In this document: positions 33,001-39,000 of the stretch, piece after piece
Layout: every line of letters begins with the position of its first letter
How positions within the stretch are numbered: position 1 is the first letter of the stretch
Origin: Bdellovibrio sp.
GTDB lineage: Bacteria > Bdellovibrionota > Bdellovibrionia > Bdellovibrionales > Bdellovibrionaceae
Reading direction: 5' to 3'
NCBI GenBank assembly: GCA_036676395.1
Contig: JAKFCY010000002.1
Coordinates: 2,048,001 to 2,112,000 of the forward strand
Length of the DNA stretch: 64,000 nucleotides
Program-made: the position numbers

Positions 33001-36000
33001 GCCAACTGAATGAAGAACTTTCAGTGGCAAAAGAACAAGCTCTAAGTACATCACGTTTAAAATCTGATTTCTTGGCCAATATGTCTCACGAAATCAGAAC
33101 GCCGATGAATGGTGTGCTTGGTATGTCTGGGCTATTATTAGATACGCCATTAAATCCAGAGCAATTAGACTACACCCTATCGGTGCGAAAATCGGCTGAA
33201 AGTTTACTGGCTATTATTAATGATATTTTGGATTTTTCAAAAATCGAAGCCGGTAAACTGACTTTTGAAAATGTGGATTTTAATCTTAGTCATTGTTTAC
33301 ATGAAGTTAAAGATTCTTTTGCAATGAGTTTAACTGAAAAAAAACTTACGCTAACCATTAATAACGACCCACAGCTTCCTGCAGTTTTAAATGGTGACTC
33401 TGGCCGCTTTCAGCAAATTTTACGTAACTTAGTTTCTAATGCGATCAAGTTTACGCCGCAGGGCTCAGTTACTGTGACCACAAAAAAACGCGACATTACA
33501 GATTCTGCAATTGAGCTTTATGTTGAAGTTAAAGATTCAGGTATTGGTATTGATTCGAAACTGCATACAACTTTATTTGAAAAATTCTCGCAAACCGATT
33601 CTTCGAACACGCGTAAATACGGCGGCACAGGTCTGGGCTTATCAATTTGTAAAAGTTTAGTTCACATGATGGGCGGAATTATCGGCTTAAGCAGTGAACC
33701 TGGTAAAGGTTCAACATTTTGGTTTACCGCAAAGCTTCAGCCTGCAAAATCTCAAAGTGTTCCATTACAAAATCAGATGATTCCCCAGTTTACTCACGAA
33801 AAAATTAATGGACGCATCCTTGTCGCTGAAGACAATGCGATCAATCAAAAAATTGCTTTAAAAATCGTAGAAAAAATGGGTTGTCGTGCCGATGCCGTCG
33901 GTAACGGTAGCGAAGCGATCGATGCCGTAGCAAATATTCCATATGATTTAATTTTGATGGATTGTCAGATGCCTGAAATGGATGGCTTTGAAGCCACGGC
34001 TAAAATTCGCGAAATCGAAAAGGCTTCGGGTAAAAAAAGAATTCCGATTGTGGCACTGACAGCCTCGGCGATGGGTGCTGATCAGCAAAAATGCATTGAT
34101 GTCGGCATGGATGATTATTTAACTAAACCTGTCGATTTTCAAAAAGTATGGTTAGTTTTAGAAAAATGGCTTAAACAAAATCCTACGCCTTAGGTCCTAA
34201 CGTGACGCAATTTATCGTTACACGAAAATTTTATCTCGCCTTTATCCCCTTCTGGTAAAAACTGGATCAACTCTTGCACGAAAAACATCCGAAAATCTTT
34301 ACATAACTTTCGAAAGGATTTTCATGTCGGCAAGAAATTTGTCTTTAGCCCTATTTTTATCATTATGTCCAATCACTTTATTGGCACAAACTACTAGCGC
34401 ATCTGAAGAAACAACACACGAGGTTGTCTTACCAAAATCCGTACAGGATCGTTTAGATTTTAAAAAGAATGTACCTAATACTTTAACTGAAGAAATTACA
34501 GCTGAAGATATTGTCCAATCTGGTACAAACTATGACTATGTTGACCCTAGTCGAGTGATTCCAAAAAAACTGCGTGATGCGGCACTTGCCTATTTTGATG
34601 TGAATAAGAAAAATTTTGCGAATCAAAAATATCTATCGATTGTCGATTTTTCGGTGCACTCATCTAAATCACGTTTTTACTTAGTTGATATGACAACCGG
34701 AAAAGTTTCAGCATTACACACTTCGCATGGTAAAGGTTCTGACTCAAACAATGATGGCTACGCCGAACGTTTTAGTAATGTGTCAGGCAGCGAGATGTCT
34801 TCACTGGGCTACTTTCGCGTAGCCGAGACTTATCATGGCAAACACGGTCTTTCTATTCGCCTAGACGGCTTATCTTCAACAAATTCAAAAGCCCGCGCCA
34901 GAGCTGTTGTTGTTCACAGTGCAAGTTATGTCAGCGAAGAAAAGAAAAAAGCCGGCCGCAGTTGGGGCTGTTTTGTTCTAGATCCAAAATATCACTCTTC
35001 AGTGGTTGCTAAGATTAAAAACGGAAGCCTACTTTACGCTAATCTTTCTAAATAATAACTATAGCGCTTAATTTAAGCAAAAACGTCTTTTAATCTTTAA
35101 AAGGCGTTTTAGTTTTTTTCATTTTTAAATAAAAAAATTAATTACAATTTATTTTACAAAATTAACGCACTATTTTTTCCGCAAAATAGATAAAAGTGCC
35201 ATTAAATTTGAGTGTATTTTCGTCACGCAATTCTTAAAAAATTATTAGATTGAATCAAAAAAAAATTCGATCAAGCATAGCAGCTCTTTAAAAAAAGGAA
35301 CTCTGCTTTGAACCTCCCTGAACTTAATTTGTCTCATTCTCCTGTAGTCAGCTATCTGATGAATTCTGTGAAAATTGCAGAAGTCACAGAATCTACTGAT
35401 TTTACAAAAGTCGTGTTAAGCGTTGAAAGCTTAATAGTTAAAGAGATGACGGTAAGACATTTAATGAGTCAAATTCAGGACAAGTACGAAAAACTTTACA
35501 ATAAACCTGCGCTGATCGAATTTATTATTGAAAGTCGCCAGCAATCATTATTGGATTATTCAACAGAGTCAGAAACAGCTCCCATTGCATCTTCTATTCA
35601 GGTAGCCGTGGCAGCACCAACGTTTCAATTTAAAAATAAGTATGAGCTTTCAAGACAATATAGTTTTGACACCTTGATTCCGACTTTAGAAAATACTTTT
35701 TCGGTTCAATCACTACAGGCGATTGTTACTGATAAATCAATCACCATGCCTTTTGCTCTTATTAAAGGCCCATCAGGCGCTGGCAAAAGCCATATGTTAC
35801 ATGCCGCTGGCTGGTTAGCTCTTTCGCAATACCCTAACCTACGCGTTAAAGTGATCAGTGGTGATGAGTTTATTAATGATTTTCAAACGGCGATTTTTAC
35901 AAAAACAACCGGTGCTTTTCGTGATAAGTACCGTTTAAAAACAGACTTATTATTAATTGATGATATTCAGGCTATTGCCAGAGCTAAAGCCACACAATTA

Positions 36001-39000
36001 GAGCTATTCAATTTAATGAATGATTATAGCCTGGCCGGTAAGAAAATATTTTTCACCTCAGATAGTGACTTAATGGCGATTGATACTATTGAAGAACGCC
36101 TGAAATCACGCTTTCAATCGGGCTTACAGCTTCACCTTGAAGCCCCTTGTTATGATTCAAAAATGAAATACTTTCGGGCGCAGCTTGATAATCATCAATT
36201 AAGCTTAAATGCAGATTTACAGACAAACACCAGCCAACACTTTGGCAGCTGTTACCGTAGCGTTGAAGGCATTGTTAATCGCTTAATTATGCTTAAAAAA
36301 ATCAATGGCTATCTAGATGTGCAAGCTGTTGAAAAAATGTTTCCCGTGCAATCGAAAGAAAAAATTAAAAACCTTTCAGCTGATTCAATCATTGAAGAAA
36401 CTGCACTTAAGCACAAATTAAAAGTCTCAGATCTAAAAGGTAAATCCAGAACAAAATTGATTTTTGCTGCCCGCAAAGAAGCTATTATGCGTTTACGTGA
36501 TGAATTAAAATTAACGGTTGCTGATATTTCCAGAATTTTTCAAAAAGATCACACGTCTATATTGAATGCTTTAAAAGCTAATTAGCCTACGGATCTAAAA
36601 TCCTAGCCACTCCGCCTAAGCCATTTTGTAAGATCGGAAAAATAATCGAATTCTGCGCAGGATCCCAAGTCATCGAATAACCATCACAACTGATCGTTTC
36701 ACTTGGCCAAAATAAAGCCGTTTCGTTCGATGTGTTCAGATTATATTTATACACCTTACCCCCAGAGCAGTAATACACATGCGGAATACCGGTTTTCACG
36801 ACGTAGTAAAAAGACTGAGCCCCGCGCGGTAAACTGACAAGGTTGCCGATTTCTCCGCCTTCAACCGCGGTGTGAATAATTGAACTGCCGATATGATGAA
36901 TCAACCAATAGTTATTCACAGAATCCCACTGCGCTTTTGAAAAAGAATTAAAATTTGTCGGAGCTTTACAAGTCGCCAGCGTGCTACTGACCGCACAGCT
37001 ATCAAGTGAACCGACATTCACGCCAAGCAGCCCGGCAAAGTGAGTCTGGGTACCACCTGATGTGCTATAAAGTTTAATCATTGAATTGACTTGGGTTGTT
37101 CCGTTCCATTGATGAAATGAGCGCATGATTTGTGAGCCATTATAACCCATTGGCCCTTGAGCATAACCCGAGATTGAAATTTGATTTCCAAGCAATGTAT
37201 CACCTGCTGTGTAATCAGTTCCACCACCGCCGGCGATATCAGACCATAAACCTGTGGCACGCGTTAAGCGTGAAAGATATGAACCATTACGAGTATAAAA
37301 AATATCACCAGTGGGCGCATCGACTGAAAATGGATATGTGGCCCCCCAGTATTTAACCGTGATCGGTTGACTGACTGCAGGGCTTACGGTGTTGGGTGCG
37401 CTATCAGATCCGTTACCGGCAACTAAAGACATGGTTCCGCCGGCGATAAATTCGCGAATTCTAAATTCATTATTATCAGCTACGATAATTCGTCCATCAG
37501 CGGCACGGTCAATCCATAGCACCCGCGATAAGCGAGCCGACGTGGCTTTTGAACCATCTCCGAAAGCTAATGACTGGCCAAATAAAGTTTGTACTTTATT
37601 TGCCGCATCGATCACACGAATGCGGTTTCTATCCATGAAATAAACTTGCCCGACCGGACTTACATAAATATCAGTTAAATCTGTATTACACGAAAGCGCA
37701 TCTGCGCCATCAAGACATTGCCCTTTGGTGCCCGTACCTAATATGCGAACCCACGCGTTCGTCAGCGGATTATAACGGTGAATTCCTTGCTTATCAAAGT
37801 GATCGACATTGTACATCACACCACTCATCGCAGTAAAAGTATTATCATCAGCCCAATAAGTGACATACGGAATATGCGGAGCTTCAACACCGCCGTGAGT
37901 TGGATTATAACTTACGCTGCGCGGAGTGTGGCCACCAGTGGTTGGAATAATCGAGCGTGAACGAATTTTTGTTACTGTTGAGGTATCCGGATCAAAAGTG
38001 ATTCCGAAATTGTAAATTGAGTACGTACTTGGATCAAAACCAGCATCTTCAAGAGAACCTGTACCTGACGGAGTGATAATATAAACTTTTTGATCAGCGG
38101 CATTGTAATAACGAACTTTGGCCCCGGCATTACGTGAGCGCATAAAGTCATCACTAATTTGAAACCAGATATTCCCATTCGGAAGAATCGTAAATAACAC
38201 ATATTCAAAACTGCTACCTATTGGATTAATTTGAAAATCACTGGCTAAAGTTGCATTGGCGTTGCTATTACCCCCGCCAATTAAAGTCGTGATTTGTCCT
38301 GTTGTAAAATTAATTTTTCGAATTAGATCGTAGTCATAAATGATTAAATTTTCTGAAGCATCGAGTGACATCTTGATTGGATTTTTTAAGCTCGCGGTAG
38401 CAATATTGCCGTTTACCGCAGTGCCATTGATTGGCATATATAATTTTAATAAGCCATCATAAGGATTAATTTGCAATAATCCCCGTTCATCTAAAACATA
38501 AACATTACCATCACTGCGCACGACGAAGCGGCCTTGTCCGGTATTATTAGTGCCCGCGGCATTACGCGTTTTAAAAATGGCCGAGGCCGCACTGCCGTTT
38601 AAACCTAAATCGGTATTACCGGCAATAATAGAAAATGGTGTGGTGTTGTTTGGCGGAGCCGAGGCATAACTAATTAAACCCGTTGTATCTGCAACGCCCA
38701 CCCGAATTTTAAAATAAGTTGAAAATGGTGACCCGTTTGTCCACCGGTAACAGCCAGTGGCATTGCCATCAATAGTACACCCTGCTCCGGCCACGTTCGG
38801 AATACCGCTGACAACAGAATTAAAAATTTCTTCATCGGCGGTAAAAGAAATCGTGATCGCATCAGCAGGAAGAGCAATATCGTCAGTGGCGGCCCATTTA
38901 ATAAAAACAGATTGCCCTGCCGGAATAAATAAATCCGCTTCTGAAATTGGGCTTCCCGGAGTATCAGAATTTAACGCCAGTACATTGGTGATTTCAGGGG

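Follow-up and report, generated by a model that had tools for sequence, protein, structure and literature searches.

General features of the locus

The genome of this Bdellovibrio has, in addition to the ordinary dnaA at its replication origin, a second gene for a DnaA-like protein elsewhere in the genome, and the question is whether this protein starts replication, regulates it, or is the remnant of a foreign replicon. The window analysed here is a continuous stretch of 64,000 nucleotides, and the gene lies on its forward strand.

35308..36585, + strand: DnaA paralog gene (ORF and translation, Pfam, TIGR00362 match, dN/dS)

It encodes 425 amino acids from a TTG start, and both the start and the AAGGA ribosome site are kept in four genomes. 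A tblastn search of the whole genome found no DnaA-like locus other than this one and C3:385770-386588, the two sharing 28% identity over 275 residues. The C3 copy is the ordinary dnaA at oriC, in the order dnaA-dnaN-recF-gyrB and accompanied by DnaA boxes. The genome-wide survey's note had reported a second DnaA of 425 residues at this site, and the ORF, Pfam and tblastn results agree with it. Its observation was confirmed in part, with the exception of what it said on the arginine finger, the N-terminus and the uniqueness of the gene.

Domain architecture

The protein can be divided as follows:

35341..35529, + strand: predicted diverged DnaA domain I, residues 12-74, helix-strand-strand-helix-strand, without the first helix (hhalign, AF2, Foldseek)
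35533..35640, + strand: linker equivalent to domain II, residues 76-111, low confidence (pLDDT < 50; variation in the family)
35641..36342, + strand: AAA+ domain III, residues 112-345, keeping Walker A K160, Walker B D218-D219, sensor I D252, box VII R264, arginine finger R268 and sensor II R317, with the family-specific residues Q193, A226-K227 and N235 (alignments numbered on E. coli DnaA; Foldseek)
36373..36582, + strand: domain IV HTH, residues 356-425, with R381, R389, D414, H415 and T416 (Pfam, column counts, tail lengths)

Pfam assigned Bac_DnaA to residues 114-274 (4e-36) and Bac_DnaA_C to residues 359-423 (2.2e-10), with no match to DnaA_N, which reproduces what the survey had found. 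The DnaA equivalog profile TIGR00362 aligns nearly end to end (residues 28-423 against profile positions 27-414 of 437), with a score of 248.6 bits that lies below the cut-off of 343.9. Taken together, Pfam, hhalign, AF2/Foldseek and the linker give the four-domain architecture of DnaA (I, II, III AAA+, IV HTH), and the top Foldseek structures for domain III are all DnaA (8btg, 1l8q, 3r8f, 2hcb and 2z4r).

The N-terminus had been described as unrelated to DnaA, domain I being considered absent. This view could not be maintained. Comparison with a profile of ordinary DnaA domain I gave an hhalign match of 96.3% (E 1.5e-9, 59 columns), AF2 modelled residues 12-74 with pLDDT of 81-96, and the best PDB TM-scores for the model were those of B. 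subtilis DnaA domain I (4tps_B/D; TM 0.63/0.62, rmsd 1.9-2.1 A). As every E-value in the Foldseek search with the isolated N-domain was above 0.001, the assignment leans on the TM-score and hhalign, and on these grounds the predicted N-terminal domain is a diverged DnaA domain I. In contrast to ordinary DnaA, its first helix is missing in the subclade of this paralog; the position of E. coli W6, within that helix, is a gap in 22 of 36 paralogs, and that of E. coli F46 is V, I or L. The following linker (residues 76-111) has pLDDT < 50 and varies in length and sequence across the family.

ATPase and arginine-finger residues

To compare residue columns, 36 paralogs were aligned with 86 ordinary DnaAs, E. 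coli K-12 DnaA serving as the numbering reference, with the roles in domain III as given in the relevant parts of PMC5742627 and PMC10721633. K160, D218, D219, D252, R264, R268, R317 and R209 are each identical in 36/36 paralogs and L273 in 35/36, so that Walker A and B, sensor I, the box VII Arg, the arginine finger and sensor II are all invariant; the AID residues corresponding to E. coli R227 and L290 are kept. The survey had likewise recognized the Walker A Lys and the Walker B Asp-Asp, which are present in our alignments. However, its claim that the arginine finger is missing does not hold: the columns of E. coli R285 and R281 contain Arg in all 36 paralogs and in 86/86 ordinary DnaAs, and the second box-VII Arg is also present in nine of nine further representatives of the family. 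The paralog segment EERLKSRF aligns with B. subtilis LEDRLRSRF, where the finger is R264. The column that had been read as S/S/S/C/K is paralog residue 253, directly after the sensor-I Asp, with S11 K9 C7 R7 V1 Q1 in the paralogs and R47 K21 S8 C6 L2 in ordinary DnaAs. Correcting this assignment spares follow-up work from being misled.

Contacts with DNA

Regarding single-stranded DNA, the paralogs lack the hydrophobic H-motif and the basic binding residue of ordinary DnaA (E. coli V211 and K243/R245). The V211 column, equivalent to B. subtilis I190, has Q29 H7 in the paralogs versus I69 V14 M3 in ordinary DnaAs. The Lys-Glu pair at E. coli 243-244 (B. subtilis 222-223) is replaced by Ala-Lys, with A33 T3 versus K74 R10 at the first position and K in 36/36 versus E57 D17 at the second, and the R245 column is G20/A16. 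For E. coli, PMC5742627 presents V211 and R245 as the H/B motifs that bind the ssDUE; for B. subtilis, PMC10721633 reports that DnaA with I190A neither binds ssDNA nor separates the strands, and calls Lys222 essential. The remainder of the pocket is largely kept (N in 34/36 at the B. subtilis N187 column, I/L/V at I193, R in 35/36 at R202 and E in 36/36 at E228), so that of six positions checked for ssDNA contact four are retained. Since most of the pocket is retained and an invariant Lys (K227) follows one position after the E. coli K243 column, the protein may still bind ssDNA, though in an altered way.

In domain IV, the columns that read DNA are R381 (36/36), D414 (36/36), H415 (35/36) and T/S/A416, and the residues with which E. 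coli DnaA reads its box (R399, D433, H434 and T435) are kept in the paralog. Position 420 is Asn both in the paralog and in the ordinary DnaA of the same genome. The protein ends 11 residues past the signature Asp and has no last C-terminal helix; the tail after this Asp is at most 20 residues long in 35/36 paralogs and in none of the 86 ordinary DnaAs. Both the retention of the Asp-His signature and the loss of the helix had been noticed by the survey, and the counts bear it out. As judged from the alignments, the paralog retains the residues for ATP binding and hydrolysis, for contact with the ATP of the neighbouring protomer and for reading the DnaA box, and the signatures of the family are Q/H at the E. 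coli V211 column, Ala-Lys for Lys-Glu at 243-244 and the missing C-terminal helix.

Upstream region and genomic context

The gene is preceded by the following features:

34324..35055, + strand: YkuD_2 L,D-transpeptidase gene (Pfam; synteny in L093, L094 and L095)
35056..35307, + strand: AT-rich upstream intergenic region (hairpin, 11-mer, ribosome site)
35080-35110: terminator-like hairpin of ykuD, within the intergenic region
35218-35228: conserved 11-mer TTTCGTCACGC, upstream of the paralog
35295-35299: AAGGA ribosome site, upstream of the paralog

In the window and in the three closest carriers (L093, L094 and L095) ykuD is directly upstream on the same strand, and this synteny holds over 71-97% identity. 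The 11-mer TTTCGTCACGC occurs once in the window, no more than expected by chance, and a sigma-70 scan revealed no promoter-like site in the intergenic region, the four sites found being fewer than in shuffled sequences (mean 6.1). Two to three DnaA boxes (at most one mismatch, gene strand) are located 110-330 nt upstream of the paralog in five of nine loci, which represent only about three independent lineages; two or more boxes occurred in 31 of 5,000 random 400-bp windows. No box was found upstream of the paralog in the window, in its two nearest relatives or in L134. A hybrid histidine kinase/response regulator is nearby in three of the nine loci, and none of the nine has adjoining dnaN, helicase-loader or partition genes.

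A second origin at this locus was considered and rejected for want of a DnaA-box cluster in the window locus and of a GC-skew inflection near the paralog (C2:2.083 Mb). Switches of the skew are confined to about 1.46-1.5 Mb on C2 and the dnaA locus of C3; the marks of oriC (dnaA-dnaN, box cluster, skew minimum) are found at the C3 copy and not here.

Distribution and selection

Clustering of the paralog family at 90% identity yields 36 groups (P0002-P0037), with 33-100% identity and lengths of 323-452 amino acids, and PF11638 was found in none of them. Genome contigs were scanned with a paralog-only alignment; the patterns of a mixed alignment were too general, matching 599 stretches, and only one of the 80 loci kept was a paralog. 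The gene is carried by 8 of 52 species genomes of the genus, and every carrier checked also has an ordinary dnaA. It was found in none of 300 other genomes of the phylum, a sample that includes 20 genomes of the other large genus of the family. These data uphold the survey's claim of a lineage-specific, patchily distributed family. Its statement that only this genome has two copies is contradicted by seven of the 51 other species genomes of the genus. The sole named carrier is Bdellovibrio sp. qaytius (protein P0012, locus L128), for which an epibiotic way of preying, from outside the prey cell, is described.

In the phylogenetic tree the paralogs are separate from all 28 non-Bdellovibrionota DnaAs sampled, a set without chlamydial sequences. 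Against three orthologues the gene has dN/dS of 0.064, 0.085 and 0.133, indicative of purifying selection, compared with 0.07-0.14 for neighbouring genes and 0.012-0.030 for dnaA, and no match contains a stop. The results support a lineage-restricted family of DnaA paralogs that exists beside ordinary DnaA and is undescribed in the literature searched.

Comparison with known systems

The paralog shares with the chromosomal DnaA of E. coli, B. subtilis and B. bacteriovorus the four-domain order, the AAA+ initiator fold with ISM, Walker A/B, sensors I/II, the box VII Arg, the arginine finger and the domain IV signature with its box-reading residues. As in chromosomal dnaA, DnaA boxes are found in the promoter in five of nine loci, the gene in the window being without them. 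It differs in Q/H at the H-motif, Ala-Lys for Lys-Glu, N for H in FFHTFN, the lack of the C-terminal helix and a position away from oriC and not beside dnaN.

Hda is a short protein consisting of domain III only. In contrast, the paralog has 425 residues with domains I and IV as well, and its scores for TIGR03420 (57.8 bits, cut-off 194.8, residues 114-304 only) and NF005982 (30.6 versus 268) place it outside the Hda family. Hda/HdaA and HdaB are presented in the relevant part of 10.1101/712307 as DnaA-derived regulators of initiation rather than initiators. The chlamydial DnaA1/DnaA2/DnaA3 are comparable in being full-length extra DnaAs beside an initiator in biphasic, host-dependent bacteria, and the pertinent section of PMC4989314 treats the paralogs as candidate transcription factors; however, NF009087 (PRK12422) gives only 111.1 bits against a cut-off of 657, with no specific sequence relationship. 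A second DnaA-like gene in the cell is also reported for Rickettsia (PMC1800911, PMC3328469 and 10.1101/2022.02.09.479837), in the form of plasmid replication proteins; unlike these, the paralog is chromosomal and without mobile context. A role in anti-phage defence was rejected, as the sole PADLOC match, to mad8 with 29 bits, was at the P-loop level and had no stretch passing alone, and PHROGs gave only DnaC-like loader matches (24-25 bits).

Possible function

Our preferred explanation, held tentatively with a probability of about 45%, is that the paralog works as an accessory, full-length DnaA-family protein and modulates DnaA-dependent origin opening and/or DnaA-box promoters. It would bind ATP, sit on DnaA-box-like duplex sites and assemble head to tail into oligomers of its own or, more speculatively, into mixed ones with DnaA. 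The surface that holds or wedges ssDNA during origin opening is predicted to be changed by the Gln/His H-motif, the Ala-Lys pair and the loss of the C-terminal helix, and for this reason the protein would most likely occupy boxes, or join DnaA assemblies, without normal strand opening. The outcome would be a modulator, most likely a negative one, and not an initiator serving a replicon of its own. A regulatory rather than primary-initiator role is suggested by the patchy occurrence, the site away from oriC and the GC-skew switch, and the remodelled ssDNA contact. It is known that dnaA genes are autoregulated, and because boxes are present in the paralog's own promoter in most lineages, control by DnaA or by its own product is probable for this gene too.

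The regulatory part of the survey's proposal, a dedicated DnaA-box-binding regulator, fits these results. In contrast, its mechanism of a finger-less anti-initiator capping DnaA filaments can practically be dismissed, since such a cap needs a missing arginine finger, which is invariant in the paralogs, and the idea rested on the misassigned column. The proposed link to filamentous predatory growth is likewise unsupported: the only named carrier is described as epibiotic, and the 20 sampled genomes of the other large genus lack the gene. The survey had itself cautioned that the gene might be left over from a plasmid or phage replicon that had integrated; this, or a decaying duplicate, would accord with the patchy distribution and with a non-synonymous rate about ten times that of dnaA. 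We regard this as very improbable: dN/dS (0.06-0.13) equals that of the neighbours, no match contains a stop, the ykuD synteny is kept, the GC content matches the flanks, and integrase, phage, plasmid and tRNA genes are all absent from the window. Moreover, in 72,556 plasmid and 50,697 phage records tblastn matched nothing above 33% identity, the level of ordinary DnaA, and a mobile-element origin was rejected.

DnaA itself also acts as a transcription factor, and the paralog might have specialised in transcription alone, controlling DnaA-box-like promoters in an ATP-dependent manner and playing no part at oriC. The treatment of the chlamydial paralogs in the section of PMC4989314 mentioned above, the intact reading residues of domain IV, the dispensability of the gene across the genus and the kinase/response regulator near three of nine loci are all in favour, yet an oligomerisation and ATPase apparatus and most of an ssDNA pocket under purifying selection would be superfluous in a simple repressor, and we consider this reading unlikely, although worth keeping in mind. 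An alternative initiator, with ssDNA specificity changed through Q/H193 towards a different trio motif and opening oriC conditionally or another site, is improbable. In its favour, every ATPase and filament residue is kept, as are four of six ssDNA contacts, and the conservation at position 193 (29 Q, 7 H of 36) suggests a new contact rather than decay. However, the locus shows neither skew inflection nor box cluster, replication genes do not adjoin it, 44 of 52 species of the genus live without it, and domain I has lost its first helix (W6 gap in 22/36) and has V/I/L for F46.

Returning to the accessory modulator, a more specific version, which we rate as rather unlikely, is a DnaA with a mutated wedge that serves as a poison-subunit brake and holds the origin closed while these epibiotic predators are in their attack phase and do not replicate. 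The paralog would load on the same DnaA boxes and co-polymerise with DnaA through its arginine finger and ATP site; having Gln/His in place of the hydrophobic wedge for ssDNA, the mixed filament would be unable to hold the opened strand, and the paralog would be displaced or diluted upon prey attachment. If true, this would be a dedicated initiation brake built from a whole DnaA, and not from a fragment such as Hda. To our knowledge, additional DnaA copies of full length are seldom met with, and in no case has their function been worked out. The family is thus a natural experiment, in which the residues for ATP, filament and box reading are kept under selection and two ssDNA positions are replaced, and testing it bears on whether initiation can be tuned by means of a protein that resembles DnaA and on how the origin is silenced in predators with a non-replicating hunting phase.

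Gene, start and copy number

Judged from its sequence, the second DnaA-like gene of this genome encodes a complete DnaA-type protein with its nucleotide site, arginine finger and box-reading residues intact, and the gene is accessory, lies away from the origin and is under selection.

35308-36585, + strand, DnaA paralog, 425 aa, TTG start

The window and three related genomes share the TTG start and, 8-13 nt before it, a conserved AAGGA ribosome site. A terminator-like hairpin (35080-35110) lies downstream of ykuD, between that gene and the paralog, so that the paralog is probably transcribed from its own promoter. 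Pfam identified Bac_DnaA at residues 114-274 (4e-36) and Bac_DnaA_C at residues 359-423 (2.2e-10), with no match to DnaA_N. The NCBIfam DnaA profile TIGR00362 aligns nearly end to end (residues 28-423 to positions 27-414 of 437), with a score of 248.6 bits, under the cut-off of 343.9.

The source genome is composed of 14 contigs (3.40 Mb), the window being C2:2048001-2112000, and tblastn over all of it found exactly two DnaA-like loci, the paralog and C3:385770-386588, the latter at 28% identity. The contig C3 gene is followed by dnaN, recF and gyrB, the GC-skew minimum coincides with its region, and it is the ordinary initiator. Seven sites matching the B. bacteriovorus DnaA box consensus NN(A/T)TCCACA (PMC5124646) were identified in C3:385000-387100, of which five are clustered at the dnaA 3' end and in the dnaA-dnaN spacer.

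The N-terminal domain

The genome-wide survey's note had described an unrelated N-terminus without domain I. This description has to be reversed: a profile of paralog residues 1-80 matched a profile of ordinary DnaA N-termini in hhalign at 96.3% (E 1.5e-9, 59 columns), and structural comparison also points to DnaA domain I. The AlphaFold2 model of the whole paralog (106-row alignment) has a mean pLDDT of 84.4, and its best structural matches are the DnaA structures 8btg, 1l8q, 3r8f, 2hcb and 2z4r.

Secondary structure predicted by AlphaFold2 at the paralog N-terminus
Residues 12-20, helix
Residues 22-28 and 33-39, strands
Residues 42-64, helix
Residues 68-74, strand
Residues 76-111, low-confidence linker

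Modelled alone, the N-domain reached a pLDDT of 85.2. Foldseek gave no match to it at E 0.001 or better; the top TM-scores were those of B. subtilis DnaA domain I (4tps_B and 4tps_D, TM 0.63 and 0.62, rmsd 1.9-2.1 A, 68 columns), and the remaining matches were KH-type domains (Era, ribosomal S3, NusA, RbfA and DciA). The missing Pfam DnaA_N match is a weak sign of domain loss, because the source genome's own ordinary DnaA reaches just 28.4 bits on that profile. The first helix of domain I, including the E. coli W6 position, is absent in the paralog's subclade and is a gap in 22 of the 36 paralogs aligned; in 11 of the 36 it is present with the Trp.

Catalytic and DNA-reading residues

Residues were compared in an alignment of 36 paralogs (P0001, P0003-P0037), E. 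coli K-12 DnaA as numbering reference and 85 other ordinary DnaAs, the source genome's own included; its letters at every cited E. coli position agree with the literature numbering. The columns of the arginine finger R285 and of R281 (box VII) are Arg in all paralogs and all 86 ordinary DnaAs. Equally invariant in both groups are K178, D235, D236, D269 (sensor I), R227 (AID-1) and R334 (sensor II), and the L290 column is Leu in 35/36 paralogs (roles from the review PMC5742627). Independently, phmmer pairs EERLKSRF of the paralog with LEDRLRSRF of B. subtilis, the last Arg of which is R264 by alignment numbering, the arginine finger of that protein (PMC10721633). The finger Arg is also kept in all nine further family representatives from the exhaustive search described below; P0127, one of the nine, carries Gly in the R281 column and is without the sensor-I Asp. 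The finger had been reported missing from a column reading S,S,S,C,K, but this column is query residue 253, one after the sensor-I Asp. It differs among paralogs (S11 K9 C7 R7 V1 Q1) and among ordinary DnaAs (R47 K21 S8 C6 L2), and is therefore variable in both groups. The capping of DnaA oligomers proposed on that basis is excluded as a mechanism at the level of sequence.

The domain IV reading residues are also retained, with R399 and D433 in 36/36 paralogs, H434 in 35/36 and Thr, Ser or Ala at T435 (E. coli numbering); the H439 column is Asn in the paralog and likewise in the source genome's own DnaA. In the E. coli domain IV-DNA structure these residues contact bases. The survey was right that Walker A/B and the DnaA-box helix-turn-helix signature are preserved. 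It was also right about the missing last C-terminal helix: from the signature Asp the tail measures 10-21 residues in paralogs (median 11.5) versus 34-42 in ordinary DnaAs (median 35.5).

A systematic scan identified 10 columns that split paralogs from ordinary DnaAs (query residues 128, 136, 193, 226, 227, 235, 246, 315, 318 and 328). Residue 193 is the H-motif, the hydrophobic ssDNA-wedge residue (E. coli V211, B. subtilis I190), and reads Q29 H7 in paralogs versus I69 V14 M3 in ordinary DnaAs. Residues 226-227 (E. coli K243-E244, B. subtilis K222-E223) are Ala-Lys in paralogs and Lys-Glu in ordinary DnaAs (A33 T3 versus K74 R10 at 226; K in 36/36 versus E57 D17 at 227), and paralogs read G20 A16 in the E. 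coli R245 column. The H/B motifs that bind ssDUE in E. coli are V211 and R245 (PMC5742627). In B. subtilis, I190A impairs both strand separation and the binding of ssDNA; Lys222, termed essential, touches a backbone phosphate (PMC10721633). The other ssDNA-pocket residues named in PMC10721633 are kept in paralogs (N in 34/36 at N187; I, L or V at I193; R in 35/36 at R202; E in 36/36 at E228), which argues against a simple loss of ssDNA contact.

Genomic location and selection

No integrase, phage gene, plasmid gene or tRNA was found in the 64-kb window, the GC content is like that of the flanks, and tblastn against plasmid and phage collections gave no match above 33% identity. On contig C2 the GC skew has one switch, at ~1.46-1.5 Mb, and no change at 2.083 Mb, the paralog site. 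In G041, a carrier genome in one contig, dnaA occupies 58-1422 and the paralog lies 2.347 Mb along the 3.349-Mb sequence, which puts it ~1 Mb away from the origin. The gene directly upstream of the paralog is ykuD in the window and likewise in its three closest carriers; other neighbours vary between loci, and among the loci examined none has a replication gene beside the paralog.

Pairwise dN/dS (Nei-Gojobori) between the source genome and orthologues in three genomes was 0.064, 0.085 and 0.133 for the paralog, 0.07-0.14 for the neighbouring ykuD and pentapeptide genes and 0.012-0.030 for dnaA. The paralog thus evolves as an average gene under purifying selection and is no decaying copy. Identity among these four genomes is 97-99.8% for ordinary DnaA and 71-97% for the paralog.

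Distribution and phylogeny

The paralog was found in eight of the 52 species genomes of the genus, and ordinary dnaA is also present in every carrier checked.

Carriers in the genus, with identity to the paralog
G000
G018, 97%
G052, 85%
G041, 72%
G014, 51% (split over two contigs)
G047, 39%
G053, 37%
G021, 36%

Among 300 other genomes of the phylum, drawn evenly over 170 genera, none has a match at E 1e-48 or better. A pattern scan of species-representative contigs with a paralog-only alignment found 10 paralog loci (L126-L135) in nine records, the other matches being at ordinary-DnaA level; this contig collection overlaps the one behind the handles, and the two carrier lists are not independent. 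All record titles are Bdellovibrio, Bdellovibrionales, Pseudobdellovibrionaceae or Bdellovibrionota, one being Bdellovibrio sp. qaytius, and L133 and L134 are beyond the genus list. When 1.84 billion representatives were searched exhaustively with an HMM, the family accounted for 14 of them, clustered at 50% identity (652-369 bits); the best single-domain ordinary DnaAs came below a gap, at ~304 bits.

In a quick maximum-likelihood tree (70 rows, unrooted, with long branches), the 18 paralogs group in a single clade (SH-aLRT 100). Ordinary DnaAs of the genus make up another (100), inside that of the order (98), and a branch (98) has the 28 DnaAs of other phyla all to one side. The paralog thus did not arise by recent duplication of the genus's dnaA; the tree is compatible with an old duplication in the phylum and many later losses.

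Among other products of the family search (P0131, P0132, P0134) are 585-700-aa proteins in which two Bac_DnaA ATPase domains stand in tandem and DnaA_C is lacking, and one of 1990 aa in which MshEN precedes two DnaA ATPase domains; these are outside the paralog family. The window's genome has no short third DnaA-like gene of the kind seen in two other genomes of the genus (G020:C49:63662-64303 and G005:C18:4053-4544), where open frames of 284-285 aa with 23-24% identity to paralog residues 117-331 are possibly Hda-like.

Upstream DnaA boxes

The 400 nt upstream of the paralog start were searched in nine loci for sites with at most one mismatch to TTATCCACA. Five loci, representing about three independent lineages, have two or three boxes, every one on the gene's strand; two or more boxes occur in 31 of 5000 random 400-bp C2 windows.

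Upstream boxes, position relative to the start, gene strand
L128: -330, -121, -111
L129 and L131: -216, -174
L130: -183 (perfect), -141
L133: -186 (perfect), -139

With the stricter Bdellovibrio consensus each of these loci keeps at least one box. The window, L126, L127 and L134 have no such box, and the homologous upstream stretch in the window's subclade is decayed. In most lineages, this genome excepted, the paralog is thus preceded by DnaA boxes in the manner of dnaA genes, which suggests that DnaA controls it or that it regulates itself in the lineages that bear them.

An 11-mer, TTTCGTCACGC, lies ~85 nt ahead of the start codon (35218-35228); four genomes share it unchanged, although the spacer around it diverges. 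It occurs once in the window and may be a regulator site.

Possible role

We tentatively favour a modulatory role, most plausibly negative, at oriC and/or DnaA-box promoters (probability about 0.45). The paralog would bind ATP and DnaA-box-like DNA, would form head-to-tail oligomers, perhaps mixed with DnaA, and would handle single-stranded DNA differently. A pure transcription-factor role is a less likely reading, and an alternative initiator whose ssDNA specificity has changed is less likely still. The proposed tie to filamentous (intraperiplasmic) growth found no support: the named carrier, Bdellovibrio sp. qaytius, is described as epibiotic (10.1101/506055, PMC11656739, 10.1101/2025.02.19.638989).

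Literature searches on extra DnaA copies, Bdellovibrio DnaA/oriC and qaytius brought up no description of the paralog family. The word 'DnaA' is absent from the main texts of these three papers, which deal with qaytius and predators related to it, and 'paralog', 'DnaA-like' and 'second DnaA' do not occur in a review from 2023 on replication in B. bacteriovorus (PMC11318664). The known extra DnaA-family proteins are chlamydial paralogs (PMC4989314), Hda/HdaB (10.1101/712307) and rickettsial plasmid DnaA-like proteins (PMC1800911, PMC3328469, 10.1101/2022.02.09.479837).

Other features of the region

32490-34193, + strand, hybrid histidine kinase gene, adjoining the ORF remnants at 31475-32067
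36587-42213, - strand, two large genes separating the paralog from the pentapeptide-repeat gene: 1071 aa, weak NHL-repeat match; 804 aa, Bdello_MAT_N fibre domain

A hybrid histidine kinase/response-regulator gene is near the paralog in three of nine loci, each time arranged differently: in the window it is two genes upstream, in L094 (7615-9303) it follows immediately on the paralog's strand, and in L096 (13-2559) it is convergent; none was seen in 20 kb around the paralog of the close relative L093. This proximity may be chance or a functional link. The two large genes are in the same interval in L093, are absent from it in L094 and L095, and look like an insertion of predation-fibre genes. 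Two short ORFs at 31475-32067 (- strand) look like what is left of a 567-aa protein without a known family, which is intact in L093 (12214-13917; 85% identity over 125 aa). A 220-aa ORF (22794-23456, - strand) at 12 kb from the paralog has a marginal IS200-like Y1 transposase match of 23.2 bits, at the Pfam cut-off; nothing else in the window resembles a mobile element.
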